From an uncultured Candidatus Bathyarchaeia archaeon (GTDB lineage: Archaea > Thermoproteota > Bathyarchaeia > 40CM-2-53-6 > CAVXDP01): a DNA stretch of 24,757 nt. Shown piece after piece: positions 785-22,448 of the stretch. The notes under the pieces were generated by a model that saw nothing but the letters and a program-made list of their open reading frames with translations, made no database searches and was not told the DNA's origin. The translations under genes were made by a program, and so were the position numbers. Each line of letters opens with the position of its first letter. Positions within the stretch are counted from its first letter, which is position 1. The stretch covers positions 1 through 24,757 of the forward strand of contig CAYGZB010000006.1 in NCBI GenBank assembly GCA_964354325.1, given 5' to 3'.

Positions 785-941
785 CCGTGCTTTCCCTCTC
801 ATAGACTTTGTACTTTGCATACTTGTCAGAGGGCGAAAACTTTGCAGGTTGTGGTGATCTTGTCTCGGTGCCGCACTTAGGACATTTCTCTTTAAGCGTG
901 TAGAGCATGCATGAGCTGCATTGTCTTATTAGCCATCTCAA
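744..941 (-). CDS. nop10: H/ACA RNP protein Nop10
   Basis: CxxC..YTLK..CPKCG..P.PAKFSP.DKY signature; TTG start overlaps the aIF2a TGA stop (TTGA). Confidence 0.92.
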   Translation of the reverse strand: MRWLIRQCSSCMLYTLKEKCPKCGTETRSPQPAKFSPSDKYAKYKVYERESTDEDLRERREDSAE

Positions 942-1720
942 GTGACTCGGCGTCCTTGTCCTCCAGCTTGGTCAATCGTCGACACAGCTTGGTCGATTGC
1001 TTCTTTGAGGACTTTCTCGGCCTCGGAATAGTCCTTTGCAGTGACCTCTATTTGATATTTTGGAGCTCCCACTGCGTAAACCTTGATCGTGCTACTTCGA
1101 GGTTTCTTCGCCTTCTTTGCGTTTAGAAGACCCTTCTTGATGTGCTCAATTCCATCTGGCTTGGAGCATGTAAGCTCCAAAACAGCCTTGCAGATGGCTT
1201 TCTCAGTCTTTATTTTCGTTCTGGCTACTTCGGTGATGACTTTCGCCCAGTTCAGATCAATTCCAATTTTTGCGAAGGTCTCTTCGCCTTCCTCGACTGC
1301 TTCCTGTAGCGCGTCGTAAAGTGATCCGTACTTGTCGAGAATCAGGTTGTTGAGGTTTTCGGCTGAACCTGCATCTAATGAAAGTTTTTCAATTGCGCTT
1401 TTCAGAATCGAATCTGCTTTCTTGTATTTCTTCCATTCGAGCAGTGTTTCCGCTTTTTCTCTTCCAGTGACTCTTCTCAGAGAGAGGTCGACTTGCCCTT
1501 TTTCTGTGTTTATTCTGAGAACCTTGAGAACTAGTTTCTGACCTTCTCTCACGTGGTTCCTTATGTTACGTACCCATGTCGTCGATATCTCTGAAATGTG
1601 GATTAGCCCTTCCTTGTTCTTGTACTCGTCGAGTTTTACATAGGCTCCGTAGTCTGTAACTTTGGTCACAGAAGCTACTACAAGGTCGCCCACGTCAGGA
1701 AATTCTGTTTGCGAAGAGAA
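938..1720 (-). CDS. eif2a: Translation initiation factor 2 subunit alpha (start uncertain: TTC 1720 or GTG 1693)
   Basis: S1 domain (YGAYVKLDEY..KEGLIHISEIS..WVRNIR, VDLSLRRV) and C-terminal GAPKY. The frame is open to the TAG at 1733-1735; the only canonical start is GTG 1693. Confidence 0.95.
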   Translation of the reverse strand, partial: FSSQTEFPDVGDLVVASVTKVTDYGAYVKLDEYKNKEGLIHISEISTTWVRNIRNHVREGQKLVLKVLRINTEKGQVDLSLRRVTGREKAETLLEWKKYKKADSILKSAIEKLSLDAGSAENLNNLILDKYGSLYDALQEAVEEGEETFAKIGIDLNWAKVITEVARTKIKTEKAICKAVLELTCSKPDGIEHIKKGLLNAKKAKKPRSSTIKVYAVGAPKYQIEVTAKDYSEAEKVLKEAIDQAVSTIDQAGGQGRRVT

Positions 1721-1732
1721 CTGTGGAGCCTC

Positions 1733-1927
1733 CTATCCAAGAATCTGAAGTGACTCTCCTTTGATCTCGGCTTTTCCTCCACGAGGAATAGCCAGAACCT
1801 CATCGCAGACGTTGCATCTCACTTCAAGAGAGACTCTGTCAAAAACTATTTGTTCATTCCCACACTTGCCGCACTTCACTTTCATGAATAGGCTTTCAGC
1901 CTTTGGTATCAATTCATCACGTTTCAT
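1733..1927 (-). CDS. rps27e: 30S ribosomal protein eS27 (S27e)
   Basis: F.KVKC.KC.NEQIVF...C.VC...LA.P.GGKA zinc ribbon. Confidence 0.96.
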   Translation of the reverse strand: MKRDELIPKAESLFMKVKCGKCGNEQIVFDRVSLEVRCNVCDEVLAIPRGGKAEIKGESLQILG

Positions 1928-1932
1928 TTGTT

Positions 1933-2211
1933 CTATGCTCCTACTTCCAGTTTTCGAAGTCTAATCCCTAATCTTGTAACTTCAAACCCGCACGTTTTAC
2001 ATTTCATTCTGAGGATCTGCTTCTTTGTGGTTTTCGCTGTTCTCTTTAGTTCAGGCCATTTCTGTCCACCATATCCATGCTTCTCCAGCTCATGTCTTCT
2101 GACACCACCTGCCAGTGAACGCTCTTTTCCTTTCTTGTAGACAGATGCGGAGTGCGGTGAATGCTTCTTGCATTTCGGACAGTATATTTTGGTCTGTTTT
2201 GGAAACTTCAT
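1933..2211 (-). CDS. rpl44e: 50S ribosomal protein eL42 (L44e)
   Basis: YCPKCKKH, GYGGQK, KTTKK..LR.KC..CG motifs. Confidence 0.96.
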   Translation of the reverse strand: MKFPKQTKIYCPKCKKHSPHSASVYKKGKERSLAGGVRRHELEKHGYGGQKWPELKRTAKTTKKQILRMKCKTCGFEVTRLGIRLRKLEVGA

Positions 2212-2256
2212 TTTAAGTCAAACTCGAAGTGGACTATAGACACGGTTTGGTTGCGC

Positions 2257-2264
2257 TATTTATA
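2257..2264 (-). promoter_or_regulatory. Putative TATA box for the L44e-S27e-aIF2a-Nop10-PAC2 operon
   Basis: TATAAATA on the minus strand about 46 nt upstream of the L44e ATG, inside an intergenic gap. Confidence 0.55.
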
Positions 2265-2374
2265 CATTGTTTCATCTTGCAACACGTCCTTGTAACTGTG
2301 TTGTTTCACTCAGCTTGGGATTCAGCTACCTTCCGTAAGAAACCAGAATTATGCGTCAATACCGATTTCAGGAA

Positions 2375-2938
2375 TTATTCGAAGTCGATCTTAAGAGCCG
2401 CTTTTCCTTTGACGAGTATTTCGGCATTCTCGAGGGGAAGCGACACTACATCTTCCGGTTTGAAAGGACCGTATGTCTTGATGTCTGCACCGACAATTGC
2501 CGGCATCTCAGTTAGGATTCTAACAACGATCCGTTTCGGTCTTCCTGTATTCGAACTTCTAAGCGATGCCTTTAGCTCACCAGTGAAGATGCCTTCAATC
2601 ATTGACTGATACAGCTTTGAAATTTCAGTGGCACTATCAAGAATCGCTTTTTCTTCCCCGACAGCCGCGTTTGAAATCGTGTCTGGACTGGTTTCGGACC
2701 CAGCTATCTGAAGTATCTTTCGTAGCCTCAACTGCAAGAGCTCTTTTGACAAGAGTCCTGCACGTTCCAGTTCTCCCTCTCCCAGTTTCACCTTCACGGT
2801 CTTCTCTTCAGTTTTTGCGAAACACTCCCTTAGTTGCCCAAGGTAGTTGGATAAGTCTTGGTAGAAGTTTCTGTCAATTGATTGTAGGGTTGGATTAGAC
2901 TTCTCTCGCTTCCAATACTCATAGATTCTGTCATACAT
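2375..2938 (-). CDS. DNA replication GINS family protein (GINS15/Gins51-like)
   Basis: Helical A domain (FYQDLSNYL..L, LR.RKI) followed by B domain (GADIKTYGPFKPEDVVSLP.ENA); ATG overlaps the PriS stop. Confidence 0.88.
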   Translation of the reverse strand: MYDRIYEYWKREKSNPTLQSIDRNFYQDLSNYLGQLRECFAKTEEKTVKVKLGEGELERAGLLSKELLQLRLRKILQIAGSETSPDTISNAAVGEEKAILDSATEISKLYQSMIEGIFTGELKASLRSSNTGRPKRIVVRILTEMPAIVGADIKTYGPFKPEDVVSLPLENAEILVKGKAALKIDFE

Positions 2939-4178
2939 TCGCTATCACCGGTCTTGCTTTTCCTTTACATATGAGTAAGACAGCCGCTTCCGCCGGCAAT
3001 GTTGCTCGCTGTTTTCTATATGGACCAAAGGTTGTTCCTCCAAGGTTGAATTGCGGAGCCTCGTCTACCTCGATCGTTGTCTCGCCGTCAGTGATTCCGA
3101 GAGCTTGATTGAAGGGATCAAAGGATTCGATATTGTCAACGCCAATCTCCACTGTGCGCATCCCAGTTCTTCCATTCAGGGTTTCCTTTGTTCGAATGAG
3201 TCGATGTACGTCCGTTGTAACAACCGTGTCGACTCTAGCCGAACAGTTTTCGATGGTTCTGTTTATGACTTTCTCCCAGCTCCTGCCAGCCATAGTACGA
3301 GATTCTAATCCATAGATCATGTTTCGCACGTCTTCGTATTGTAAGCTGGGGCCTCTCTCCTGAGTTACCATTTTGGCCACGGACCTCTTTACGCCCAGAC
3401 CAACAAGTTCTTCTGGAGTTCCTTTTCCGAAAACATCGATTAGCTTATGAATGATCCTTCTCTTCCATCCTCTGGTCTCTTCCAAACTCTCAGGAAGGCT
3501 TGGTCTAACAGAGTTTTCTTGCAGAACGTCGATTTCGTCGAGGTCAATTCCAATTCCAAGGACGTAATCAACGATTTCCTTTCTTTCATCGCTGCTCAGA
3601 CTCTGAATCGTGTCCGACATCACATGTACATGATAACCTCTGTGACCCGTAAAGAAGACTTTCAAATCTTTTCTTGAGAACCCATAATCCTCGATCAACA
3701 TGTCAGCAAGCTTCAAGGTTTCATTCTTTGCTTCCTTGATACAAAACCCGCAGATCCACGTACGATCGTCAAATCTGTCACCGTTGCATGAGGGGCAGAC
3801 TTGTGGGGCACCACCTTTTCCCGATCGACCGCATTTCTTGCAGGTCCACTGGTCATGCGTCTCTTTGCAAGGTGTAGGTATATGATCAGCATCGATATCG
3901 AATACCAGATCAGCGCCAAGCCAGCCTTTCTGTTCCATCTCTTCTTCCGGTTTAGAGTAGTAGGCGGTTGAATAGTAAACGTCTGAAGGAGCTGAATCCG
4001 TTATGAATTTTCTGAGGTCACTAACTGACGTGAACTGCCTATGTCTTACCATTACTCTATTCTTGAAGTAGATGAAGCCGAATTCTCGTTTTTCGAATTT
4101 CTCAGGAGGCATAATACGATGCGAGTTCTTTCTGTAGTATTCCCTGAATTTCTCTTCGAGAAACTGGTCAACGCTCAC
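2931..4178 (-). CDS. priS: DNA primase catalytic subunit PriS
   Basis: DLVFDIDADH, FTGHRGYHVH and DTVVTTDVHRLIR motifs. GTG 4178 follows a GGGGTGA SD; alternative start GTG 4187. Confidence 0.95.
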   Translation of the reverse strand: MSVDQFLEEKFREYYRKNSHRIMPPEKFEKREFGFIYFKNRVMVRHRQFTSVSDLRKFITDSAPSDVYYSTAYYSKPEEEMEQKGWLGADLVFDIDADHIPTPCKETHDQWTCKKCGRSGKGGAPQVCPSCNGDRFDDRTWICGFCIKEAKNETLKLADMLIEDYGFSRKDLKVFFTGHRGYHVHVMSDTIQSLSSDERKEIVDYVLGIGIDLDEIDVLQENSVRPSLPESLEETRGWKRRIIHKLIDVFGKGTPEELVGLGVKRSVAKMVTQERGPSLQYEDVRNMIYGLESRTMAGRSWEKVINRTIENCSARVDTVVTTDVHRLIRTKETLNGRTGMRTVEIGVDNIESFDPFNQALGITDGETTIEVDEAPQFNLGGTTFGPYRKQRATLPAEAAVLLICKGKARPVIANV

Positions 4179-5205
4179 TGACGTCACCCCTTCTCCTGAA
4201 GACCCGTCTTCTGTAGTAGGTGAGAGGATGCCTTATCTCCTTGCATAGATTGTCAGGATTCACACAGAGACCATGAGTCTTCAGGGTGTCACATTTGGGC
4301 GGTAGATATCTTGTCTTCACACCCTTTGAACCGCCGATATGTTCAACCTGATACCGCGTCAATCTTTCGCTGAAATCCGTTGCTTCACGAAACATCTTCA
4401 CGAGATCGTCCCGGTTGACTCCAACGTTGAGTAGAAATGACGTCAGCGTGAAACGACCCATGTGAGATAGATGTTTTTTTGAGGATAGCATTTGATTGAG
4501 AGCCTTTACGCACGGTGGCATGGCTTCCGATACCACTACCTTGGGCATCCCTGTAAACGAAACATATTTTCCGGTATCGACTTCTTGCCTTAAGTTCTTG
4601 ATTCGTTCCATAAGAGGTTCAGGAAAAGTCTTGGATGGAGGTCTTATCCTAGAGTACACTTTGTGCTGTATTTCTTCTTCGAGAAGACGCGCTGCCTCCT
4701 CCCAGGTTGCGGAAACAACACCATGGTCAAGCAGACGATTGACGAGTTTCCATCTTGAATCTCGAATATTCTTTGCGTTTCTTATGTAGTCAGTGAAGTG
4801 AATGCTGCACTCGAAGCGTGCCCCGTCTCTTCTTTCTTGGGATGTGGTTTTCCAGCCGAATGTATTTTTTGCAATCTCTAGCATCTTTTCGGGGTTTTCA
4901 TTTCTTAGATGTTCGTAGGCTCTCTTTGACTCTGAGAGCGCATATCTTCTTGTAATCCTATCATTCATCAATTGACTTACGAACATTATTGCTGTTGGAT
5001 AAGATAGAATCTCCACGTTGGTATCTTGCCAATCAGGTGAGACTAAAGCATCCTTCTCGGATTCCCGGATTCTCTCCTCTGCTCTATCCAGAATCGAGTC
5101 GTAGCTTCCAGAAGCTAGTTCGTCTATGCCGATCCTTAGGCTTTTGACGTACTCAGATGCTTCAATTGTGAATGGGTATTTGGCAAGGTCGGTAGTTGTG
5201 AGCAT
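4168..5205 (-). CDS. priL: DNA primase large subunit PriL
   Basis: LAKYPF N-terminus; Fe-S domain PPC...LSHMGRF...DF.E..TRYQVEHI...Y.PPKC..LKTHGLC. Confidence 0.95.
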   Translation of the reverse strand: MLTTTDLAKYPFTIEASEYVKSLRIGIDELASGSYDSILDRAEERIRESEKDALVSPDWQDTNVEILSYPTAIMFVSQLMNDRITRRYALSESKRAYEHLRNENPEKMLEIAKNTFGWKTTSQERRDGARFECSIHFTDYIRNAKNIRDSRWKLVNRLLDHGVVSATWEEAARLLEEEIQHKVYSRIRPPSKTFPEPLMERIKNLRQEVDTGKYVSFTGMPKVVVSEAMPPCVKALNQMLSSKKHLSHMGRFTLTSFLLNVGVNRDDLVKMFREATDFSERLTRYQVEHIGGSKGVKTRYLPPKCDTLKTHGLCVNPDNLCKEIRHPLTYYRRRVFRRRGDVSER

Positions 5206-5216
5206 TCTCTTTGCTC

Positions 5217-5972
5217 TTATTCAGCTTCGATTCTTGGAGCAAGATAGTACAGGAGGTGCCCTTGTTGAGGCATCTCAAATTCAATTTTGATTGGCATATC
5301 GGTCGAGAATTCCATGGTGACGATTTCTGATGCTCCACTTCCTGCTCTTATTATGTTTGCGAGATAGTTGAGGTTGAAGGTTGCTTTTGACGGTTGTTTC
5401 ACGTCTAATTCAAGCATCGCCTCGCTTCCTTTCTCGATTGTCATGTGTACGCTGCTGAGTTCAGTGCTCGTGCTGACAAGAACCTTCTCAGGTGTCGTCT
5501 CCAGTTTGACATTGTCGCTTATCGATTGGGCGTCTTCAATAATATCTCGGAGGCTCTCAGTGGTCATTTTTACTTTTGAATTGAAGACTATCTTGGGTGT
5601 AGGGACTTCTTCTTCAACAGCCTCCAATGTGGGAAGTGTGAACTTCTTTGTGATCTTACCTTTCAAAATTAGGGTTACTTTCTTGGTCGTGTCGTCGTAA
5701 GACATTTCAAGCGTTTCTTCGCTCTTGACTCTTTTGAGAAGTTTTAGCATGTTTGCGAGGTTCACTCTTATTTTGTTGGGGGTTGTACAGGAGAACTTCT
5801 CGAAAGCGGACTTTGGCCATTCAAAGTCGACCATCGCCACATGCGAAGGATCCATCGATCTTACTTTGACTCCTTCTGGAGAAGTGCTGAGGTCAGCCTC
5901 TTCGACAAGTGTTGATATGGCTGTCAGTATGTTCCTCCAGAGTCTTGCATCAGGCAGTGAAGCTTCAAACAA
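5217..5972 (-). CDS. pcn: PCNA sliding clamp
   Basis: SMDPSHVAMVD and YYLAPRIE motifs. Start set to TTG 5972 (MFEASL) after GGTGTGA. Confidence 0.96.
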   Translation of the reverse strand: MFEASLPDARLWRNILTAISTLVEEADLSTSPEGVKVRSMDPSHVAMVDFEWPKSAFEKFSCTTPNKIRVNLANMLKLLKRVKSEETLEMSYDDTTKKVTLILKGKITKKFTLPTLEAVEEEVPTPKIVFNSKVKMTTESLRDIIEDAQSISDNVKLETTPEKVLVSTSTELSSVHMTIEKGSEAMLELDVKQPSKATFNLNYLANIIRAGSGASEIVTMEFSTDMPIKIEFEMPQQGHLLYYLAPRIEAE

Positions 5973-6021
5973 TTTTGTCACACCCAAATCCATGGAGTGT
6001 AGTTGGATATCCATCCAAGTC

Positions 6022-6028
6022 ATTATAA
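6022..6028 (-). promoter_or_regulatory. Putative TATA box for pcn-priL-priS-GINS
   Basis: CCTTATAAT on the minus strand about 50 nt upstream of the PCNA start. Confidence 0.45.
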
Positions 6029-6066
6029 GGTTTGATGCTAGGCAGTTTCACTTGTGAAGCATGAGT

Positions 6067-6390
6067 TTAGGAAGTCTCTCTCCACGTTGTTCCGCAACGA
6101 GTGCATCTTAAGAACTGTGTTGACGATTCATCTGCTCCTCGAGTCTGAACAAGCCAGTAGAAAGCCTCGAAATGTCCGCACTTGGGGCATTCCACTTTCA
6201 TCTTCGGTAATGTCCTAATCTTCTGTTCTTCTTTGCCGATTACAACTATCTTTTCTTTTTCTGGTGCTAGTTTGGATACTGTCTTCTCCGGTTTGCCTGG
6301 TACGTAACCACATTTGGGGCAGTTCAACACAACCTTCTGTTCCTTTCTAACCAGTACGAGAGCTGTACCGCACTTGGAACAGAACTGCAT
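6067..6390 (-). CDS. tfs: Transcription factor S (TFS)
   Basis: Two zinc ribbons; QTRGADE acidic hairpin; FCSKCG N-terminus. Confidence 0.95.
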   Translation of the reverse strand: MQFCSKCGTALVLVRKEQKVVLNCPKCGYVPGKPEKTVSKLAPEKEKIVVIGKEEQKIRTLPKMKVECPKCGHFEAFYWLVQTRGADESSTQFLRCTRCGTTWRETS

Positions 6391-6399
6391 AAGCTTCAG

Positions 6400-6975
6400 C
6401 TACCTAGAAATCGACCCGATCTTTCTTCGTGAGCGCAATTTAATCTTTTTGGAATCGCTTGCACGCAGCCGATTGAAGGTTGATGCAAACAACCTTGCCA
6501 CTCTGATTGGCTCTGGAATATCAATCGTGCACGACATTTTGACCACGCTTTTCGCATCGGCTGAGTCTAAGCCGACCCGGTATATCTGAAGCGGTTTCTT
6601 CTTCGATGTCAGCAATATGGACATGGGTTCGCCAACGCCTTTCAGCAATTTCGTTCCCTTTGTTCTTCTGGAGACGGCAATAACCGGGATACTTGTTTTA
6701 TTGTTAAGAGATCCTACGTCAACTACGCTGTGGTTTCCAAAGATTATGCCATCAGTCATGATCAGTCTGATCTGTTCAGAATATGGAGATGATGTGATCA
6801 TTCGTGCAATTTGATCGGTTGGATTAACTCCGTTTCTTCGCATCGGTATTCTCATAACACCTTCGAGCCAATGACCTCCTCGGAACACAACACCAATGAC
6901 TTCCGTCGCTCGTTTTGGGTCTCGGTCTTGAGAAAAGCCGTCCGAGATTCCCAGTATGCGAATTCCCTTTTTCAT
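6400..6975 (-). CDS. DUF99 / endonuclease V-like family protein
   Basis: RILGISDGF, GVVFRGG.WLEGV, DGIIFG and IPEPIRVA motifs; conserved position next to TFS. Confidence 0.8.
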   Translation of the reverse strand: MKKGIRILGISDGFSQDRDPKRATEVIGVVFRGGHWLEGVMRIPMRRNGVNPTDQIARMITSSPYSEQIRLIMTDGIIFGNHSVVDVGSLNNKTSIPVIAVSRRTKGTKLLKGVGEPMSILLTSKKKPLQIYRVGLDSADAKSVVKMSCTIDIPEPIRVARLFASTFNRLRASDSKKIKLRSRRKIGSISR

Positions 6976-6989
6976 CTATTTCAGCGTCT

Positions 6990-7373
6990 TCAGTGATTTC
7001 TCATTCTTTCAAGAATACTCTTCACGAGCTGGGTTGCGGCTTCCGTTAAGTCATCAGAATTCTTTGAAATGATATCCACCATTTCATCCAATTCGAGAGA
7101 TTTTCTCATCCAAGAATCGACAACCAGGGCTTCGATAACGTTGGCAACCTCCCCTCTCTTGATTCTCCTAGGTAGAAGGGGCCTTATTCCAGAGTTCTTC
7201 GCGGCTTCAAACAGAATCCTATCGCTGACTTTCACTCCGACAGGTATTCCGCTTGCTTTCGTCAACGCTAGAGAGAATAGGAAGTTTACGTAAGCGTCTC
7301 CCAGTCTCGCAAGACTGCGGTTCTTGAGAATCTGCTGAAACTCGGAGTTACTTAATAGATCGTCCAGTGACAA
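6990..7373 (-). CDS. Archaeal RNase III-like domain protein
   Basis: LARLGDAYVNF and ANVIEAL motifs. Start uncertain (TTG 7373, 7433 or 7451). Confidence 0.75.
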   Translation of the reverse strand: MSLDDLLSNSEFQQILKNRSLARLGDAYVNFLFSLALTKASGIPVGVKVSDRILFEAAKNSGIRPLLPRRIKRGEVANVIEALVVDSWMRKSLELDEMVDIISKNSDDLTEAATQLVKSILERMRNH

Positions 7374-7404
7374 CGAGGCTTCATCTGGAAAGAGAAAGAC
7401 TGCT

Positions 7405-7692
7405 CTATGCCTTTGATCCTCTGCTTTCAGCAAATTTCTCGGAGAGTTCAACGGCCCTTTCCTTTATCTTCGCCAGCGCACGGTTCAAGGCCTTTGTTGG
7501 AGATTTCTCTCCTTTCATTCTTATGTAGACTACGGGTGATGGAACGAGTGGATGAGGTTGATCATAGCCTGCTATTTCCACATCGTTATCCTCTAGCAAG
7601 GTCTGTTGAAGAAGGTTACAGAACGTATGTCCTTCACCATAGATCTGGATCTTCAATTCATTCTTGGTGTCCTTCAGTGTCTTGATTTCCAA
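7405..7692 (-). CDS. rpoL: RNA polymerase subunit Rpo11 (L)
   Basis: GEGHTFCNLL and AGY..PHPL motifs; TTG start after a GAGGAG SD. Confidence 0.95.
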   Translation of the reverse strand: MEIKTLKDTKNELKIQIYGEGHTFCNLLQQTLLEDNDVEIAGYDQPHPLVPSPVVYIRMKGEKSPTKALNRALAKIKERAVELSEKFAESRGSKA

Positions 7693-7705
7693 GGGAAACT
7701 TCTCC

Positions 7706-9879: not shown

Positions 9880-10076
9880 CGGTCTCACTGCAAATCGGTT
9901 GACAGCATCTGCTGTTCTGCTTTCCCACAGAATCCATGGATGGTCTAAAGTAGTATGCTTCTAATTATCGTTCTTTACCTCTACTTGGTGACCAAAACTA
10001 GTTGTTCTCGTGACCATCAATCCATGGTTGTCACATATCGCAGTCTTTGTCAGGGTATGTTGGTTGGTTCGAAGGT

Positions 10077-12467: not shown

Positions 12468-12533
12468 CTTGCAACATACCTTCTCATGACTATGAATCTA
12501 TTCGCGTGATGGCGGCTGATCGAATCTCTCTTC

Positions 12534-12540
12534 GATAAAA
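12534..12540 (-). promoter_or_regulatory. Putative TATA box for ppsA
   Basis: AAAACCC-TTTTATC on the minus strand in the L10e-ppsA gap. Confidence 0.4.
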
Positions 12541-12593
12541 GGGTTTTGACCAAGCATATTCGAAATGGGCTCGGTAGACCGGGTATTCTGAGA

Positions 12594-13103
12594 TTAAGCT
12601 ATTTTGGGCTCCAACTTCTGAATGAAGACTCTTGAAGCCATTGACAATTTCGAAGATGAAACTCTCAAGGCTTCCTTTGCATGTCCAAGGGCTGATTCGT
12701 TTACATAGATTTCTATCACTGCTTTATTTGGCTTCAACCTCGCCGCCCTTCCGGTAGGCTTGCCAAAAGACCTGCGCATTCCTTCTTGCAGCCTGTCTGC
12801 TCCGGCCGTTGCAATCATTCGGTTCTCCCTAAGAATTATGTGTGGATAGGACACCAGCTTGACGAGATAGCCTGTCTCACCAAGTTTGTCAAACATGACC
12901 TTGTTCGCTGATACACGCGCCGCTTCGAGGGCATTGTGTCGAATCTGAATTGCACTCTCAGATAGGAGCGATACCTTATACTGGTAGGTTGCTTTGGAGT
13001 CGCCCATAGTGAACTTCTGGACCTTTGACGGGGGCGATCCGTGAATGTATTTATGCCGAGTGTAGGATTGTCCTTTCGCAACCCTGTAATTGCGGCCTTT
13101 CGT
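12594..13103 (-). CDS. rpl10e: 50S ribosomal protein uL16 (L10e), probable ACG start
   Basis: ALEAARVSANK, YPH.ILRENRM..AGADRLQEGMR.SFGKP motifs. The frame continues upstream of ATG 13007 through KGRNYR..GQSYTRHKYIHGSP to ACG 13103 (169 aa). Confidence 0.95.
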   Translation of the reverse strand, partial: TKGRNYRVAKGQSYTRHKYIHGSPPSKVQKFTMGDSKATYQYKVSLLSESAIQIRHNALEAARVSANKVMFDKLGETGYLVKLVSYPHIILRENRMIATAGADRLQEGMRRSFGKPTGRAARLKPNKAVIEIYVNESALGHAKEALRVSSSKLSMASRVFIQKLEPKIA

Positions 13104-13144
13104 GACTGGTCACCTGAATCGTCAGCATAGAGCCTTTGACTCGT

Positions 13145-13152
13145 TATATAAA
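13145..13152 (-). promoter_or_regulatory. TATA box for rpl10e
   Basis: TTTATATA on the minus strand; predicts a TSS near 13122, just upstream of the AGGTGA SD at 13115-13110. Confidence 0.65.
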
Positions 13153-13155
13153 GAC

Positions 13156-13890: not shown

Positions 13891-13895
13891 CAGAT

Positions 13896-14753
13896 CTATT
13901 TCTTGTCCAACTCATTCGTTCTTGTCTGAATCATTTGTTCACGCAAATTGCTCTTCGCCAAGGCTCCACATAACTCATCCGAGAGTTGTTCGAATTGCCG
14001 GACTGTCATTTCACACACCCTCAAGTTGGGTAAGCTGACCTCCCTGAAAGCGTCTTGATAAGGAATCCCCATCTTTGACTCTAAATATCGAACCAAAACT
14101 TTCTTGACATGCCTTCTTCGTTGTGTAAAAAGGTCTCTGACCAAATTGTCGAAGAACACTTCGTCACGGACTTTGTATGGGTTGGGCTTGGGTTTCAGAG
14201 TGACTATCACGGATTCGACCTTAGGTCTTGGCTTGAATGATTCCTTGGAAACCTGATCGAGAAGCTTCACATCCATTCGATGTTGGATAGCTACAGTTAC
14301 TCTTCCGTATCCGGGATCTTCATTCTCTGCATTAATCTTCTGTGCGAATTCTTTCTGCAGAGTGAGAACGCACACTTCAAACTTCTTCTTCGTAAGAAAA
14401 AGCATGAATTTGGATGATATATAGTATGGTATGTTTGAGACAACTTTGTTGAAGTCCGGCAAGCTTGTTCGTAGAATGTCTCCGTGAATCACTTCGATGC
14501 CATCTTTTGATTCAAACTTCTCATGGAGCAGTCTGACAAATCTCAGATCTTTTTCGACGGCTATGACTCTTCCAGCCGTCTCTGCAATTAGCGAAGTTAA
14601 TGTACCGGTTCCTGGTCCAACCTCAAGCACTATGTCATCATGTTTGAGCGATGCGTAACCAACGATTCTCTTGAGAATATCGTTATCGATCAGGAAATGT
14701 TGGCCTAGTCTTCTGATAGGTCTGGGTCTGTGCGAGGTCAGTTCAGGTCGCAT
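13896..14753 (-). CDS. ksgA: 16S rRNA m6,2A dimethyltransferase KsgA/Dim1
   Basis: LGQHFL, EVGPGTG.LT, SNIPY.ISS and F.PRPKVES motifs. Confidence 0.96.
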   Translation of the reverse strand: MRPELTSHRPRPIRRLGQHFLIDNDILKRIVGYASLKHDDIVLEVGPGTGTLTSLIAETAGRVIAVEKDLRFVRLLHEKFESKDGIEVIHGDILRTSLPDFNKVVSNIPYYISSKFMLFLTKKKFEVCVLTLQKEFAQKINAENEDPGYGRVTVAIQHRMDVKLLDQVSKESFKPRPKVESVIVTLKPKPNPYKVRDEVFFDNLVRDLFTQRRRHVKKVLVRYLESKMGIPYQDAFREVSLPNLRVCEMTVRQFEQLSDELCGALAKSNLREQMIQTRTNELDKK

Positions 14754-14754
14754 A

Positions 14755-15378
14755 CTATTGAGCGGCCCTCGTGAAGAGCCTGTACTTTGATTCGCCGCTC
14801 AACTCTTCGACAATTCTTTTTGCTATGAGTTTAGCCGGGTCCGTTATGCCCGCTCTCTCACGAATGTCGACGAAACTGGCGAACGGTTTCTTCTCTCTCT
14901 GGTTAATTATTTGCCACATCAACTTCTTTCCTATTCCGGGAAGGAGTTCGAGAGCATGCATTCTAGGGGTAACTGCTTGTGAGTTGTTGAAGAAGTCGAC
15001 AAACCTCTTTTCTTGGCTTTTGGCAATATCTTCGATTACTGACTGAAGTTCTGCTTGGGCTCCTATCGTCAGTTCTTCTATTCCCACGCGACCTACCACG
15101 CGGTCGATCTTCTCCCTTCTTTCCCTTCCAACGTACAGTCTATCTCTTACATTTGCCGTTGCTCCTGGTTTCAATTGAGCCTCCAGAAGAGTGAAGAAGT
15201 TCTCTCCAATGACTTGGACGGTGGGCACAGCCATGTGTCTCGATCTTTCGGAGGTGGGTCTTCCATAAGGAAGTAATTCCAGAACGTAGGCGTAATCCTC
15301 GTACACTTTTGTTGGGTATTGTCTTGAAGGTGAGGAAAGTGTTTCGGTTTCCCTATACTGTCTGTTCGTGCTGCTCAA
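14755..15378 (-). CDS. DUF655 family putative nucleic-acid-binding protein
   Basis: YE.YAYVL, QVIGENFFTLLE and RMHALELLPGIGKK (HhH) motifs; TTG start after GGAG. Confidence 0.9.
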   Translation of the reverse strand: MSSTNRQYRETETLSSPSRQYPTKVYEDYAYVLELLPYGRPTSERSRHMAVPTVQVIGENFFTLLEAQLKPGATANVRDRLYVGRERREKIDRVVGRVGIEELTIGAQAELQSVIEDIAKSQEKRFVDFFNNSQAVTPRMHALELLPGIGKKLMWQIINQREKKPFASFVDIRERAGITDPAKLIAKRIVEELSGESKYRLFTRAAQ

Positions 15379-15563
15379 CAGTTCCGCACTCCTTTTTTAT
15401 AGCAAAACTAATCGGACGGGTTCAGCGTTGCCACTTTGGAGTCTTGCTCAGCGTAACCTGTGAATGGGTTGAGCAGCGTAAAACGCGCCATAACTTCTCT
15501 GCCTAGGATTAGGTTAGTTTGAAGTTAAATAGGTTGCGAACTTGAAGAGGTTATTCAGCGAGT

Positions 15564-15899
15564 TCATTCTTTTCTAGCGTTGTTAACTGCCTTTAGCACA
15601 TCATCCAGTTGGCCGACCGGAATTACACGACCTTTGACTGCGAGGATAGCACGCAGTTCTTCCATTGCCGCCGGCATGCAGTTCACTATCTGGATGGCGT
15701 CTGATCTCTCGAGTTTGAACTGACTGACCAACGCATCTACCAGTTTCGAGGCGTCTGATCCCGGAAGTCTCGAGAATTTCGTAGTATAATCCAACGTTCT
15801 CCTTTGAAATTCGCCAAGTTCTTCCGGTTTTGCTTTTTCAAGGACTTTCCGTGCATCAGCTACGGTTATCCTTTTTTCATCAGTGACTCTACGTGGCAT
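15564..15899 (-). CDS. rpoF: RNA polymerase subunit Rpo4 (F)
   Basis: EFQRRTLDY..KF and A.QIVN.MP..EELRAIL motifs; conserved position after L21e. Confidence 0.92.
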   Translation of the reverse strand: MPRRVTDEKRITVADARKVLEKAKPEELGEFQRRTLDYTTKFSRLPGSDASKLVDALVSQFKLERSDAIQIVNCMPAAMEELRAILAVKGRVIPVGQLDDVLKAVNNARKE

Positions 15900-15901
15900 C
15901 G

Positions 15902-16201
15902 TTAACCACTCGTCTGTGGTGTGATATGTTCTGGTCGTACTATGAGGTTCTTCTCTTTGTCGCCCAATTTGAGATTGACTAGGTAGCTTCTGCCTCGTTT
16001 TCCTTCGATCACTCCGATCTTGCCTTGGAATCTCTTATGGGGCATGCCTTTATGGATGCTAGAATCGATTTTCACGCATACCTTGTCTCCGGGCTCGTAG
16101 GGTCTGAGTATCCGGCTCAATCCCAGTTTACCTTTTTCTCTGGGGGCCTTACGTAGCAGTGATCTTGTTTTTGAGCGATAACCACTTGATTTCCTGACCA
16201 A
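15902..16201 (-). CDS. rpl21e: 50S ribosomal protein eL21
   Basis: GYRSKTR, KGMPHKRFQGK.G and RPEH motifs; TTG start 6 nt after GGTGA. Confidence 0.96.
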   Translation of the reverse strand: MVRKSSGYRSKTRSLLRKAPREKGKLGLSRILRPYEPGDKVCVKIDSSIHKGMPHKRFQGKIGVIEGKRGRSYLVNLKLGDKEKNLIVRPEHITPQTSG

Positions 16202-16276
16202 ACAGGTTCACCAATGCCTATGGACTTTTGATATTGCGCCTATTGCAACAACCAAGTCAACTATATGGGTGTTCCT

Positions 16277-17611
16277 CTATTGCGCGGCAAACGGCATTCT
16301 CTTTCCGAGCGTCAGCTGACGTCTTTTCAGAGATTTGACCATCTTCTTCATCGTGAAGTATTGGTTCACAAGTTCCTTCACGTCTCGCTCACTCTTTCCC
16401 GAGCCTCTGGCAATTCTGTGAGCCCTTGATGAGTCGATCAGTTTAGGATCTTCAACTTCATCCTTTCTCATGGACTGTATAATTACTCTCCAGTCATCGA
16501 GTTTCTTCTCAGCGATCTCAATCTGATCGTCGGCAATGTTGATGCCACCGGGCATCATCTTCCAAATCTTCCTCAAAGGGCCCATTCGACGAAGTCCTTC
16601 CATTTGGTGATACAGATCACTTAGCGTGAACCGACCCTGCATGAAAGCCTTGACCTTGGTCTCGCTGACGTCTAACTCGGCATCTTTCACTCGGTCCAGA
16701 AGGGCCCGTAGATCTCCCATTCCCAGAAGTCGACCTACAAAGTTCGCCGGAACAAACTGTTCGATGTCTTCGATCTTCTCACCAGTTCCAATGAACTTTA
16801 TTCTCGCACCTGTGGCCGCTACGGCAGAAAGGGCTCCGCCCCCTTTCGCGGATCCGTCAAGTTTCGTAACATAGATGGACCCAATGGCAGTTGCGTCATT
16901 GAACGCCTTAGCATGAGCCATGGCTTGCTGTCCAATCGTTCCATCTATCGCCAGAAGAATCTCGTCAGGCTGAACAACTTCAGAAAGTCTTTTCATCTCC
17001 TCCATGAGCGCCTTCTCATCTTTGTGTCTGCCAGCCGTGTCAATCAGTATGATATCGTACTTTTCCTTCCCCAGTATGTCTAACCCATTCTTTGCTATCT
17101 TCTCGGCATTCTTTTCTCCCGGATCCCCATAGACACTCACTCCAACCCTGTCAGCCATCTGCTTCAATTGCTCATAAGCGCCTGGACGATAAACGTCCGC
17201 GCAGACAACTCCAGACCTCTGACCTCTTTTCTGATAAAACCTGGCAATCTTGATAGCCCCGGTTGTTTTTCCAGTCCCCTGGATTCCGACTAGCATTACA
17301 ATGTTTGTCTTTCCCTCTTGTAACGTGGTCTTGGCAGGCTCTTCACCAAGAAACCTAGTCAGTTCTTCGTAGAGGACTTTGATTACATGCTCTCTTCTGG
17401 AGATTCCTGGGGGAAGGTTTTCCTTTATCGACCTTTCCTCGACCCTCTTCGAAATGTCCAGAACAAGATTGACGTTTACGTCGGCTTGAAGAAGAGCTCT
17501 CTGAAGATCTTTGACCAGTTCCTTGATGGCCGCTTCGTCGACTACCGGTAGCCTGAGCATTTTCTTGATGGAGTCACTTAGCGATTTTGCTAGGCCTTCA
17601 AGTGCACTCAT
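16277..17611 (-). CDS. srp54: Signal recognition particle protein SRP54
   Basis: GIQGTGKTT, DTAGRH, TKLDGSAKGGGALS and M domain (RIARGSG) motifs. Confidence 0.97.
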   Translation of the reverse strand: MSALEGLAKSLSDSIKKMLRLPVVDEAAIKELVKDLQRALLQADVNVNLVLDISKRVEERSIKENLPPGISRREHVIKVLYEELTRFLGEEPAKTTLQEGKTNIVMLVGIQGTGKTTGAIKIARFYQKRGQRSGVVCADVYRPGAYEQLKQMADRVGVSVYGDPGEKNAEKIAKNGLDILGKEKYDIILIDTAGRHKDEKALMEEMKRLSEVVQPDEILLAIDGTIGQQAMAHAKAFNDATAIGSIYVTKLDGSAKGGGALSAVAATGARIKFIGTGEKIEDIEQFVPANFVGRLLGMGDLRALLDRVKDAELDVSETKVKAFMQGRFTLSDLYHQMEGLRRMGPLRKIWKMMPGGINIADDQIEIAEKKLDDWRVIIQSMRKDEVEDPKLIDSSRAHRIARGSGKSERDVKELVNQYFTMKKMVKSLKRRQLTLGKRMPFAAQ

Positions 17612-17836
17612 TAACCTTTCCCAACGATTTCGTTCTCACCAGAAACGACGCGAGAAGCTAGTGCTTGTGGAGCTCTTAAATGTTGGTTGCGGGTTGCGCC
17701 TGTTCCATGATGAAAGCTACTCGCCATTCTCAGAATCAGTTACCGTGAGTTGGAGCCTTATCTCATTTCAGAATAACACCAACCTTATCAACCATGAATC
17801 AACTTTAGACGATGCAGGAGAGTTCTTGACGAAATA

Positions 17837-18613
17837 ATGATTAGCAAACAAAGGAAGAATCAGAGCCAGACTTCAGATCTTGTTAGAGTGGTCCAAAGAG
17901 AACGCTTGCCACGAAAGTTCACATTGATGAACGGGTTGCCTGATGTAGGACTTGTTGGAGTCGTTGCAGGTTCACAGATTGTGTCCTCTATTGGAATGAA
18001 GGAAATAGGTTCGATAGAATCGGAACTTTTTCCGCCCCTTGTAGTCCTTCATGGCGGAGTTCCAAAGTCACCGATTAGAATTTATGGAAAGGGATCATTG
18101 GTCGTGATTATTGGTGAAACGGCTATACCAGCAGGGGCCGTCTATCCTATTGCAGAAGCTATAGTGGACTGGGCTTCGTCCGCAGGTGCGGGTCTAATAT
18201 TGTCAATAGGCGGGATGGCGGTTCAGAATCGTCAGGACATTGAATCTCCAAAGGTTTTTGCGGCTCTTTCGGACAAGAAACTCTCAAAACTTCTTAATGG
18301 GTCGGCAGAGGTTTTGGGCGAAGGATACATTGTCGGCACATATGCACTCATGCTAAAAAGATGCGCGGAGATCGGACTTCCAGCAATTGCCCTTCTAACT
18401 CAGTCTTACTACAACTACCCAGATCCCGAAGCCGCAGCTGCCGCAGTCGAGTCCGTGAACAAGATCCTTGGATTGAAAGTAAACACTTCGGAACTTCTCC
18501 GAAAGGGAGAGGAGATTCGCCTTCGAAGCAAAGACGTGATGAAACGAACCCAGGCGGAGATGGTGAGGATCAACAAAGGGCAGGAGTATGATGTCCCACC
18601 GCTCTACGGATAG
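17837..18613 (+). CDS. PAC2-family proteasome assembly chaperone with C-terminal HbYX motif
   Basis: GLPDVGLVG and PDPEAAAA motifs; the protein ends in LYG. Confidence 0.88.
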   Translation: MISKQRKNQSQTSDLVRVVQRERLPRKFTLMNGLPDVGLVGVVAGSQIVSSIGMKEIGSIESELFPPLVVLHGGVPKSPIRIYGKGSLVVIIGETAIPAGAVYPIAEAIVDWASSAGAGLILSIGGMAVQNRQDIESPKVFAALSDKKLSKLLNGSAEVLGEGYIVGTYALMLKRCAEIGLPAIALLTQSYYNYPDPEAAAAAVESVNKILGLKVNTSELLRKGEEIRLRSKDVMKRTQAEMVRINKGQEYDVPPLYG

Positions 18614-18622
18614 TGATTGTAA

Positions 18623-19021
18623 ATGAGCAAAGAAAGAAGAAAGTCCAATTTTTCAGATTACCTGAGAAGAACCGAGCAGATAGCTGAGAAGACGCTCGCA
18701 AGCGGATGGAACGAAACCGCCTCAACCATCGAGCCGCTTTCAGATATCATACTCGGAGCCTCCGAAGTGGTTGTGACGATGGACCTTCCCTACGTTGACC
18801 CAAACGCTGTTCAGGTCAAAGTCATAGCAGATGATACGATCGAGGTTCAGGCGAAGACGAAACACAAGATATCCCTTAACGACTTGGGAGTTAAGCACAG
18901 AAAAGGCGAGTTTAATCTGTATCATGCTGTGCTTCACATGCCAGTCCCAGTCAACGAGGAAGGGATGATGCACAAACTGAAACGTGGCGTGCTGGAGATT
19001 CATCTCCCCAGACAAACATGA
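18623..19021 (+). CDS. Small heat-shock protein (Hsp20/alpha-crystallin)
   Basis: EPLSD...EVVVTMDLP.V and K..GVLEIHLPR pattern. Confidence 0.8.
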   Translation: MSKERRKSNFSDYLRRTEQIAEKTLASGWNETASTIEPLSDIILGASEVVVTMDLPYVDPNAVQVKVIADDTIEVQAKTKHKISLNDLGVKHRKGEFNLYHAVLHMPVPVNEEGMMHKLKRGVLEIHLPRQT

Positions 19022-19062
19022 AATTCAGAGAACTGAAGTGACAATAGAAAACCCCTCTTGTT

Positions 19063-19070
19063 CTTATATA
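19063..19070 (+). promoter_or_regulatory. TATA box for aIF5A-DHS
   Basis: CTTATATA about 52 nt upstream of the aIF5A GTG. Confidence 0.6.
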
Positions 19071-19121
19071 GATCTAGAATGACAATACAGAGAACTCATC
19101 TGCGACAAGCGTGGGATACAC

Positions 19122-19517
19122 GTGAGCAAACCAGTTGATGTGGGAAGCCTCAAGATCGGTCACTACGTTGTAGTAGATGGAGAGCCCTGCAAGATAGTCG
19201 AGTACGAGAAATCAAAACCTGGAAAACATGGTGCAGCCAAGGCTAGGATAGTGGCTATTTCAGTTTTGACTGGCCAAAAAAAGAACATCATAAGCCCGGT
19301 AGATGGAAAGGTTGAGGTTCCAATGATTGACAAGAAGACCGCTCAAGTCATTTCTATATCGGGAAATGTGCTGCAATTGATGGATATGGAAAGCTATCAG
19401 ACGTTCGAAACGGATATGCCTGAAGACGAAGAACTGAGAGGAAAACTAGCATCGGGGCTCGAAGTCGAGTACTGGAACATGCTTGGAAAGAACAAAATAG
19501 TCAGAGTTAAAGGTTAG
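19122..19517 (+). CDS. eif5a: Translation factor aIF5A
   Basis: SKPGKHGAAK hypusine loop; GTG start. Confidence 0.97.
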   Translation: MSKPVDVGSLKIGHYVVVDGEPCKIVEYEKSKPGKHGAAKARIVAISVLTGQKKNIISPVDGKVEVPMIDKKTAQVISISGNVLQLMDMESYQTFETDMPEDEELRGKLASGLEVEYWNMLGKNKIVRVKG

Positions 19518-19559
19518 AGTCCCCGCGACTTCTTAAGCACATTCTGAAAGGTTGCACTA

Positions 19560-20498
19560 ATGCGTCGAATCCAGCCGATCAGGCTTCGGCGAAGCATGAG
19601 CACAGACGATCTTGCTCAAGAGATGGGCAGAGCAGGCGTTCTGGGAGCCGGAAGATTCTCCACGGCGGTGGACATATGCTCAAGAATGTTTTCCGACAAA
19701 CGGTACACAAATATTCTGTCTATTGCAGGACCCCTTGTTCCAGCAGGGCTCAGACAGATAATTCGAGACCTGATTAATGACCGCCTCTTGCATGCGATAG
19801 TGACCACTGGAGCGAATATGACACATGACCTGATAGAATCAATGGGCTACAGACATGTAATTGGAAAAGCATCAGCGAACGATTCGACACTCCAGAAGAA
19901 GAAGATTGGCAGAATATACGACATCTACATCAGTCAAAAAGCCTACCAGAAACTCGAAAAAGAGACTTACAAGATTCTTGCAGACATAGATGATCGCAAA
20001 CGAAAGAATATTTCGACATATGAATTATTTTGGGAATTCGGAAAACGCATCCGAGATGAGAATTCAATAATCAAGACTGCGGAAAAAAGAAAAGCCCCGA
20101 TATTTTGTCCAGGAATCTATGATTCAATGTTTGGAATGGATCTATGGACGTTCAGTCAACTAAACACATTGATGATTAATCCATTCTTGGATTTTAGCAA
20201 GCTCGTTGACATGTCATACGACGCGGACAGGGTCGGGGTAATAATCTTGGGTGGAGGAGTTCCGAAACACTATGTTCTTGCCGGAAATATCCTTCGCGGA
20301 GGCGTTGACGCCGCCATTCAAATCACACTCGACAGACCTGAAGCTGGTGGCATCAGTGGCGCTCCGCTTGAGGAAGCCATCAGCTGGGGAAAGATAGGTA
20401 ACAAGAAAGATCTTGCCACCGTAATCGGCGATGCAACCATGGTATTTCCAATGTTGGTTCTGGCAGCTTTACAGAGAAAACCAATAAACATGATCTAG
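19560..20498 (+). CDS. dys: Deoxyhypusine synthase
   Basis: TTGAN.THD, GGGVPKH and SGAP.EEAISWGK (catalytic Lys) motifs; adjacent to aIF5A. Confidence 0.94.
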   Translation: MRRIQPIRLRRSMSTDDLAQEMGRAGVLGAGRFSTAVDICSRMFSDKRYTNILSIAGPLVPAGLRQIIRDLINDRLLHAIVTTGANMTHDLIESMGYRHVIGKASANDSTLQKKKIGRIYDIYISQKAYQKLEKETYKILADIDDRKRKNISTYELFWEFGKRIRDENSIIKTAEKRKAPIFCPGIYDSMFGMDLWTFSQLNTLMINPFLDFSKLVDMSYDADRVGVIILGGGVPKHYVLAGNILRGGVDAAIQITLDRPEAGGISGAPLEEAISWGKIGNKKDLATVIGDATMVFPMLVLAALQRKPINMI

Positions 20499-20582
20499 GT
20501 AATTGTTCCAGCCAATCGTCTGTAGTTATTCTGACAAAACTGCAAGTGATGCAATATCCTAGACGACTATTCGTCTCATAAT

Positions 20583-21671
20583 ATACGGATTTCAATTGGG
20601 GCTGGAAGAACCCTACTGCTTTCTGGGCCAGCTTCGATCAAGCTAATTGATGGAGAGGCAAGCATCTTCGCTTCTCCGCTAGAAAGGGGATACAAGATTG
20701 TTGTCGGCAAAGGAAAACAACTTCCGATAGAAACATCGAAAAACTCCACCATCCACTGTTCCCTTTCCAGTTCTGCTGAATCTCTGGAGATCGCTGGAAG
20801 CACGATCCCTGAGTCTTGGATGGAAACAGCGCAGACTATCGTCGAATGTGGACAAGGAAGGACCGTCGTCATTGGCAACGTGGACACTGGCAAAACCGGT
20901 TTCTGCACCGTGCTAGCTAACATCGCCTTGAATTCGGGAGTCAAGGTTGGAATTCTTGATGCTGACCTTGGTCAGTCTGACATTGGACCACCTGGCAGCA
21001 TTGGATTCGGGCGAGCAGGCAACCACATCTTTGGCCTATCAGATGTCACTCAGGATCGTCTGTATTTTGTAGGATACATTAGTCCAGCGCTAGTAGTCAA
21101 CAAAGCACTGTCTGGAATGAGGAAACTGCTGGAACGGACAAAGAGTGTTGATATTCTCATAATCAACACAGATGGGTGGGTTCTGGGTGACCAGGCAATT
21201 GTCTACAAGAAGAGCCTGATCGACCTAATCGAACCGAATTTTGTTGTGGGAATAGGGGAAAAAAGCGAAACAAACTCTATCCTTGAACTTGTCGAGCAAA
21301 CATCATTTCAAATACAGTCCCCGAAGATGGTTCTCAGACGCACAAGAGAGCAGAGGAAAGAACTGAGGGAATTGAGGTACAGGAAATACCTGAACAGATC
21401 GGTCGTGGTGAAGGTTGATACTCTCAGATCTAAGGTTTCATTTAGCAATGGTCAGGTGTTGAGACCTGAGCATCTTGATTTATCGTTGACAAGGTCTCTT
21501 CTGGGCATGCTTGATGATGATGGATGGCTGTTGGGAATAGGGGTTCTTTCAGGCATGAACCGGAAAGACGAGAGCCTTAGGATTACAACACCTGTAACAT
21601 CCTTTTCTGAAATCGAAATTGGAGCCGTAAAACTGGATGAAAATGGGACCGAGTTATCATATTTGGAATAG
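20583..21671 (+). CDS. Clp1/Nol9-family polynucleotide 5'-hydroxyl kinase, probable ATA start
   Basis: P-loop GNVDTGKT, DADLGQSDIGPPG and INTDGW motifs. The frame is open from 20550 and encodes GRTLLLSGPAS...GSTIPESW before ATG 20820. Confidence 0.9.
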   Translation: MRISIGAGRTLLLSGPASIKLIDGEASIFASPLERGYKIVVGKGKQLPIETSKNSTIHCSLSSSAESLEIAGSTIPESWMETAQTIVECGQGRTVVIGNVDTGKTGFCTVLANIALNSGVKVGILDADLGQSDIGPPGSIGFGRAGNHIFGLSDVTQDRLYFVGYISPALVVNKALSGMRKLLERTKSVDILIINTDGWVLGDQAIVYKKSLIDLIEPNFVVGIGEKSETNSILELVEQTSFQIQSPKMVLRRTREQRKELRELRYRKYLNRSVVVKVDTLRSKVSFSNGQVLRPEHLDLSLTRSLLGMLDDDGWLLGIGVLSGMNRKDESLRITTPVTSFSEIEIGAVKLDENGTELSYLE

Positions 21672-22393: not shown

Positions 22394-22448
22394 CGTGACT
22401 GAGGTTGTCTTAATAGGCTGCTTTCGGATTTGAACTTGGTACCTAAAG

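Follow-up and report, generated by a model that had tools for sequence, protein, structure and literature searches.

Probable initiation at near-cognate codons behind Shine-Dalgarno motifs in a genus of Bathyarchaeia, with uL16 starting at ACG

Where does translation begin in a gene that offers no ATG, GTG or TTG at or upstream of its conserved N-terminus? This question is raised by a 24,757-nt stretch of DNA (the window), contig C6 in the metagenome-assembled genome (MAG) of an uncultured wetland archaeon of the Bathyarchaeia (labelled G000; 987 kb in 126 contigs, 87% complete). When all frames of the window are read from stop to stop, the genes for the ribosomal protein uL16 (L10e), the polynucleotide kinase Clp1 and the initiation factor subunit aIF2-alpha lack such a canonical codon, and the remaining genes possess one. 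A preliminary description of the window had assigned the three genes the start codons ACG, ATA and TTC, respectively. The missing canonical start at the expected position and the ACG of uL16 stand up to scrutiny, while TTC and ATA do not hold as start codons.

Four congeneric genomes (G001-G004) and 26 genomes from the order served for comparison. Judged by these comparisons, the genus is likely to tolerate initiation at near-cognate codons that lie 5-8 nt behind a strong Shine-Dalgarno (SD) motif, uL16 starting at ACG and Clp1 probably at ATC. Among the codons that appear to be tolerated, ACG would rank above all others, followed by ATC and perhaps CTG.

Start sites of uL16, aIF2-alpha and Clp1

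The uL16 gene carries the clearest case, and its elements are the following:

12594-13103, minus strand: uL16 (L10e) coding sequence from ACG, 169 codons plus stop
13101-13103, minus strand: ACG start codon of uL16, its column aligned with 19 relatives
13110-13115, minus strand: SD motif AGGTGA, 6 nt ahead of the ACG, read directly; its TGA closes the frame
13145-13152, minus strand: TATA-like TTTATATA upstream of uL16, kept in G001, G003 and G004; putative promoter

The first canonical codon of the uL16 frame is codon 35, preceded by 34 codons without ATG, GTG or TTG. The Pfam profile Ribosomal_L16 (positions 2-131) spans residues 12-161 of the stop-to-stop frame. Public gene calls begin at the ATG at 13007 (137 amino acids, on 17 public contigs), and a start at this downstream ATG would cost 32 conserved residues. 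G001, G003 and G004 also have ACG in the start column and no in-frame canonical start upstream; their SD motif reads AGGTGG at the same 6-nt spacing, and the adjacent codons differ. Exactly in this column, 16 genomes from other families carry ATG, GTG or TTG. Moreover, the upstream region including the ACG is identical to the window in seven independent metagenome contigs, and the leader differs from that of G003 at 9, 4 and 19 first, second and third codon positions, which amounts to a third-position bias. As judged from the aligned sequences, the ACG at 13103-13101 is the conserved start codon of uL16. The TATA-like TTTATATA lies about 42 nt upstream of it; as a putative promoter, it would leave uL16 with a leader of about 20 nt.

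The start of aIF2-alpha seems to have changed hands within the genus. The relevant elements are:

938-1693, minus strand: aIF2-alpha coding sequence from GTG 1693, with Pfam domains S1 and EIF_2_alpha; likeliest start in this species
1718-1720, minus strand: TTC at the SD-defined position of aIF2-alpha, a mutated ATC that is probably a start no longer
1729-1734, minus strand: SD motif AGGAGG, overlapping the TAG stop of eS27 (1735-1733) and lying 8 nt before the ATC/TTC

All four congeners (G001-G004) and two genomes of another family (G005 and G014) have ATC in this column, and no canonical start precedes the S1 domain in G002, G003, G004, G005 and G014. A pattern scan of metagenome contigs returned seven true aIF2-alpha matches, five with ATC and two with TTC; one of the two further TTC contigs carries a nearby synonymous difference, and among the changes listed for run X1 none falls at 1718-1722. 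TTC (1720-1718) differs from ATG at two positions, one more than a near-cognate codon. Every TTC-bearing sequence has a GTG nine codons downstream. In the window this is GTG 1693, which sits nine codons inside the conserved (F/Y)PDVGD N-terminus and is the sole canonical or near-cognate codon within 14 codons after the eS27 stop. The TTC is thus real and fixed in this species, but it is a mutated ATC and probably a start codon no longer, and turnover from an ancestral ATC to GTG 1693 is the most likely history suggested by the alignments. Ribosomes that terminate at the eS27 TAG, which lies in frame 39 nt upstream, may re-initiate at GTG 1693.

The eS27 TAG (1733-1735) is in frame with aIF2-alpha (938-1732) in all five congeners. 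In G002 the shared frame is kept despite a 3-nt insertion between the two genes, and in G005 the frames differ.

For Clp1, the following elements have to be considered:

20556-21671, plus strand: Clp1-type polynucleotide kinase from ATC 20556, the best candidate start; Pfam CLP1_P at residues 109-282
20545-20549, plus strand: SD-like AGTGA, 6 nt ahead of ATC 20556, unchanged in three other assemblies of the species (L285-L287); its TGA closes the frame
20549-20581, plus strand: mini open reading frame (mini-ORF) from an out-of-frame ATG, 10 codons here and 5 in the other strain
20583-20585, plus strand: ATA, the start named in the preliminary description; AGA in L285, L286 and L287, not conserved

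The first 90 codons of the Clp1 frame hold no canonical start, so that the first such codon is codon 91, and public calls begin at ATG 20820 (283 amino acids). Compared with G003, the 78 aligned N-terminal codons have 56% identity, the same as the gene body, and the leader differs at 24, 19 and 39 first, second and third codon positions. Because it is conserved like the gene body and has this third-position bias, the N-terminal domain appears to be translated. In 19 relatives, Clp1 starts at ATG, TTG or GTG a few codons ahead of a conserved GRTLL(V/L)SGPAS block, the congeners having a plain in-frame ATG. The N-terminal tails of the relatives do not align, so that ATC 20556 has no comparable start column. 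Further evidence comes from L285-L287, in which the 283-residue C-terminal part is identical and the leader differs at nine clustered positions; three of these differences, between 20562 and 20593, fall on third positions of the Clp1 frame and are synonymous. ATC 20556 and AGTGA-N6 are conserved in these assemblies, and the 5' region is free of insertions and deletions (indels) both there and in Logan contigs of three runs. The ATA at 20583, by contrast, is AGA in all three and was rejected. With moderate confidence, we favour ATC 20556 as the candidate start of Clp1.

A rival origin of Clp1 would need no near-cognate codon: ribosomes could initiate at the out-of-frame ATG 20549 and enter the Clp1 frame by a +1 frameshift or by termination and re-initiation. 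This ATG is kept in all four assemblies, the end of the mini-ORF falls within the Clp1 leader, Clp1 is read in the +1 frame relative to the mini-ORF, and both strain variants would yield Clp1 N-termini of similar length. However, the strains do not share the stop of the mini-ORF (TAA 20579 in the window, TGA 20564 in L285-L287) and would therefore not share the shift site either, no conserved slippery or stimulatory element is seen in the leader, and the congeners have their plain ATG. A conserved shift site at the 0-frame stop, as in prfB-type programmed +1 frameshifting, was not found for Clp1. On balance, we give this route a small chance, and ATC 20556 is retained as the candidate start.

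Near-cognate starts across the genome and the genus

Does the pattern extend beyond the window? For the congener G003 (1.94 Mb), pieced together from separate stretches, 750 orthologue pairs with G000 had closed 5' ends. In each pair, a codon-position test was applied to the aligned codons ahead of the first canonical start, to see if they change in the manner of coding sequence. The test replaced a tblastn screen for upstream extensions, which was dropped because the 5' untranslated regions and overlapping upstream genes of the congeners are conserved at the DNA level. A coding-like leader was found in 31 of the 750 pairs. After triage by manual inspection, Pfam and the other congeners, about seven G000 genes, or roughly 1%, need a near-cognate start; since short leaders escape the screen, this rate is a lower bound. 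The three non-canonical cases among the roughly 33 window genes represent a local excess over it. Many seeming "broken genes" proved to be antisense shadow ORFs and were filtered out, and PEP carboxylase (contig C98) was rejected because a TTG at codon 15 lies upstream of its Pfam domain.

The seven genes encode uL16, chorismate synthase (aroC), a homocysteine-biosynthesis protein (HcyBio), a radical SAM protein, a molybdopterin oxidoreductase, an unnamed conserved protein and Clp1. The aroC start is ACG in G000, G002 and G004 and GTG in G001 and G003, in each case behind G(G)GTGA-N6; in G000 the arrangement is GGGTGA-N6-ACG, the Pfam domain begins at residue 12 and the first canonical codon is codon 25. 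HcyBio has GGAGGT-N7-ACG in G000 and G001. The radical SAM gene of G000 starts at ACG, the molybdopterin oxidoreductase at CTG, and the unnamed conserved gene has CTG where three congeners have ATG. Additionally, Gins51 of G002 reads GGTGA-N6-ACG, with ATG at this place in four species.

In G000, HcyBio (C7:15282-16436, locus L204) is preceded by a three-codon mini-ORF, ATG GAG GTT TGA, whose GGAGGT doubles as the SD motif of the ACG. The same arrangement occurs in G001, and the corresponding ATG of G003 shares the frame of HcyBio.

Taken together, no canonical start lies at or upstream of the conserved N-terminus in L10e, Clp1, aroC, HcyBio and the aIF2-alpha genes of G002, G003, G004, G005 and G014. 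The codon in the start column of the homologues is one base from ATG in L10e and aroC (ACG) and in aIF2-alpha of the congeners (ATC), and it is conserved across species and independent assemblies. A strong SD motif, GGTGA-N6 or GGAGG(T)-N7/8, lies 5-8 nt upstream of every well-supported near-cognate start, which fits an SD-anchored placement that compensates for a mismatched codon-anticodon pair. The 33 coding-like ORFs opened by GGTGA also count in favour of near-cognate starts, their third codons including six ATG, four TTG, two GTG and two ACG. First canonical starts have an SD match of at least 5 nt in about 15% of cases, against a background of 4%; genes with no leader or a weakly acting one are therefore probably the majority. 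Mechanistically, the duplex between the SD motif (GGTGA or GGAGG) and the anti-SD would place the near-cognate codon in the P site, where the ordinary initiator Met-tRNA would pair with it despite one mismatch.

Canonical alternatives to ATG are used heavily as well. Where a G000 codon aligns with a clean orthologous start, it is ATG in 131, TTG in 92 and GTG in 26 of 249 cases; a tally of start columns against "clean" G003 starts contained too much noise to yield a rate, as the 53 flagged cases were mostly start shifts. Codon alignments of five species reveal conserved alternative start columns for PCNA (TTG), RpoL (TTG), PriS (GTG), TrmJ (GTG), DUF655 (TTG) and an RNase III-like gene (TTG/GTG). 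The features with mapped starts are:

5970-5972, minus strand: TTG start of PCNA, same column in five congeners; Pfam PCNA_N position 1 at residue 26
7690-7692, minus strand: TTG start of RpoL, column conserved in five congeners
15376-15378, minus strand: TTG start of the DUF655 protein, column conserved in five congeners
19122-19124, plus strand: GTG start of aIF5A, column ATG in G002, G003 and G004

Several proposals of the preliminary description are borne out by these data. About ten TTG or GTG starts had been predicted, and the aligned columns agree for PCNA, RpoL, PriS, TrmJ, DUF655, aIF5A and the RNase III-like gene. Initiation had been thought to be SD-driven, which matches the strong motifs at 5-8 nt, such as the GGTGA-N6-ACG of L10e, aroC and Gins51 of G002. 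The genome-wide rate is about 7 of 750, and the clade shares the unusual codons, with ACG in L10e of three sister species and ATC in aIF2-alpha of four.

Competing explanations and the initiation machinery

The initiation machinery itself looks ordinary. aIF1 is present in G000 and highly conserved, differing from the copies of relatives at scattered positions alone, and it starts at ATG in G000, G003, G004 and 12 relatives; loss or damage of aIF1 was thus rejected. aIF1A, aIF2-beta and aIF2-gamma are present, the latter two with ATG starts. A visible defect in the machinery of initiation fidelity is therefore not supported.

Could the three sites simply be errors of sequencing, assembly or consensus building? 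The MAG is split into 126 contigs, and neither the TTC nor the lack of a Clp1 start is shared by other species. As mentioned above, however, the uL16 region recurs identically in seven independent contigs and the TTC in two further ones, which refutes this reading for L10e and aIF2-alpha. The Clp1 5' region has no indel elsewhere, frame-shifted gene pairs in G000 number 3 of 591, all of the roughly 33 window genes are intact with full-length Pfam matches and zero internal stops, and ACG and ATC are common to other species. An error origin is hardly credible. The preliminary description was right on the intact genes and in judging the sites not to be random error; the error arithmetic it offered is not supported. 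It is also improbable that translation of these genes sets in at the canonical codon next downstream, giving proteins with shorter N-termini than those of their homologues. Public gene callers work on this assumption, and for aIF2-alpha of this species we prefer it ourselves (GTG 1693, nine residues shorter). Elsewhere, downstream starts would remove the 32 conserved uL16 residues, 13 positions from the beginning of the chorismate synthase domain and, in Clp1, the entire N-domain of 90 residues, and the leaders evolve like coding sequence with the third-position bias noted for L10e (9/4/19) and Clp1 (24/19/39). Alternatively, the ACG could be converted to AUG by C-to-U editing of the mRNA as in plant organelles, so that ribosomes would meet an ordinary AUG in the transcript. 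Among the non-canonical codons ACG dominates, and no other near-cognate codon becomes AUG through a single C-to-U change. Against this, the ATC and CTG starts of the same lineage could not be repaired in this way, and ACG starts always come with a strong SD motif, as expected if weak codon pairing needs compensation. Archaea are not known to possess a C-to-U editing system for mRNA, and we rate editing as a slim prospect.

The preliminary description had favoured a fidelity-sensing regulon, in which the non-canonical start of aIF2-alpha would act as an autoregulatory sensor similar to the AUU of bacterial infC. The conservation of the aIF2-alpha ATC across the genus and in two genomes of another family would fit such a sensor, as would the roles of uL16, aIF2-alpha and Clp1 in translation or RNA processing. 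Genome-wide, however, metabolic and replication genes are affected too, and the set is functionally mixed (chorismate synthase, homocysteine biosynthesis, radical SAM, molybdopterin oxidoreductase and a replication factor). The start codon is ATG in the gene of the known discriminator, aIF1, and likewise in those of aIF2-beta and aIF2-gamma; this species has lost the aIF2-alpha ATC (now TTC), a loss that a required sensor should not tolerate; and ACG, GTG and ATG interchange freely among sister species. The infC-type arrangement, a conserved non-canonical start in the fidelity factor's own gene, was thus found neither for aIF1, with its ATG, nor for aIF2-alpha, with its change from ATC to TTC. 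The regulon idea is accordingly not upheld, and we consider it quite unlikely. A related proposal makes ACG a genuine fourth start codon of this lineage, read by initiator tRNA through GGTGA-N6, and adds a conserved AUC in aIF2-alpha that ties synthesis of the initiator-tRNA carrier to initiation permissiveness in a loop like that of the infC AUU; we see an outside chance for it. Since about 1% of genes are concerned, these genes are functionally unrelated and ACG swaps with GTG or ATG among sisters, the trait looks like lineage-level permissiveness with neutral turnover of start codons rather than a dedicated regulon or gene-specific programming.

Several observations weigh against tolerance of near-cognate codons. 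RNA depth is 0.09 in the bin that holds 13101-13103, which leaves room for C-to-U editing of the ACG. Genome-wide SD-anchored tests were weak: ACG was not significantly enriched in G000 (Fisher p = 0.09), and G003 gave no signal. Since about 15% of canonical starts carry an SD motif of at least 5 nt, such tests have little power. Neither ARAGORN nor an anticodon-arm regular expression nor the Rfam tRNA hits revealed an initiator tRNA in the assemblies. Four of the seven cases (Clp1, radical SAM and both CTG genes) occur in G000 alone, where decaying genes could have lost their start codons recently, and GTG 1693 of aIF2-alpha has no SD motif of its own in this species. A different pattern, finally, occurs in trpE (C26:3286-4740, L209), where ATG TAC GTG TGA places an in-frame TGA at codon 4 in both G000 and G004 and is followed by a conserved frame of 76 codons without a canonical start. 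G001 and G002 also lack a canonical start there, and G003 has a plain ATG; readthrough, re-initiation or decay could be responsible.

tRNA genes at the Rfam threshold number 11-21 per genome in G000, G002 and G003. Most measure 85-125 nt and probably carry introns.

Gene content, related systems and significance

The window encodes, as named through Pfam, L44e, eS27, aIF2-alpha, Nop10 and PAC2, followed by GINS, PriS, PriL, PCNA and TFS, further along by RpoL, Csl4, Dph2, PEP synthase, uL16, TrmJ and KsgA, and then by DUF655, RpoF, L21e and SRP54. On the opposite strand lie PAC2, Hsp20, aIF5A, deoxyhypusine synthase and Clp1. Two paralogues of the PAC2 family of proteasome-assembly chaperones thus accompany a small PAC4-like ORF (23-925, 17798-18613 and 22434-22799); the small ORF named PAC4-like in the preliminary description is kept in G002-G004. 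At 6641, within the endonuclease dU gene (Pfam Endo_dU), a contig of run X2 carries a 12-nt insertion. A strain polymorphism lies at 20485, towards the 3' end of the gene for deoxyhypusine synthase, with an insertion of 2 nt in run X1 and of 3 nt in run X2. The encoded protein measures 300-301 amino acids in public calls and 312 here, which indicates that its C-terminus varies between strains.

In G000 as a whole, the commonest stop among long ORFs is TAG (300 of 643). A gene of the MtnA/aIF-2B family (C75:3671-4243, L211) matches Pfam IF-2B at positions 117-279 alone; in G000 and G003, a stop directly precedes its conserved RNAGALATVGYGTALG block and no canonical start is present, and the gene may be split or frame-shifted in both species. 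A LysW-like zinc-ribbon gene (C27:2296-2526, L210) has its ATG in another frame than the part conserved with G003, pointing either to a frameshift in roughly the first 20 codons or to an error on the G003 side. G003, a public MAG in 16 contigs, has adjacent frame-shifted pieces in 74 of 525 orthologue comparisons, compared with 3 of 591 for G000; it looks like an uncorrected, error-prone long-read assembly, the frames of which need careful reading.

Archaea permit starts at AUG, GUG and UUG, and aIF1 discriminates against AUU in vitro (PMC4705826, review). The heavy use of TTG (92 of 249) and GTG (26 of 249) agrees with this picture, but ACG and AUC do not figure among the starts described there (PMC4705826). 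Searches of the available literature on ACG or near-cognate starts in archaea or Bathyarchaeota found no paper reporting such starts. Eukaryotic and viral non-AUG initiation at ACG or CUG with Met-tRNAi offers a parallel, as the codon is likewise one base off at the homologues' start, ACG is preferred, and the eukaryotic-type factors aIF1, aIF1A and aIF2 are present here. In contrast to that case, the archaeal starts have a bacterial-type SD motif at fixed spacing instead of scanning and a Kozak context, and they give essential proteins of one isoform their sole start instead of generating alternative isoforms or upstream ORFs. The AUU starts of infC and pcnB in E. coli resemble the present case in their SD-led near-cognate initiation and in the involvement of an initiation factor gene (infC there, aIF2-alpha here). 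Unlike infC, however, the archaeal discriminator aIF1 has a normal ATG, the ATC is lost in this species, and there is no sign of autoregulation. ATC and CTG are on the start list of NCBI translation table 11, together with ATT and ATA; ACG is not. In plant organelles, too, conserved genes have ACG as initiator codon in the DNA, but here ATC and CTG starts coexist with it and the SD dependence points to direct decoding.

If near-cognate initiation of this kind is true, the accepted set of archaeal start codons (AUG, GUG and UUG) would be incomplete, and standard gene callers would systematically shorten or overlook proteins of a group that ranks among the most abundant archaea of sediments, as exemplified by uL16, which lacks 32 residues in the calls on 17 public contigs, and by Clp1, which loses a whole domain. 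A practical remedy would be homology-aware start calling that permits SD-N6-ACG. Moreover, an SD-anchored apparatus of eukaryotic type that accepts a mismatch at the middle position would provide a system in which to study how the stringency of aIF1 and aIF2 evolves.

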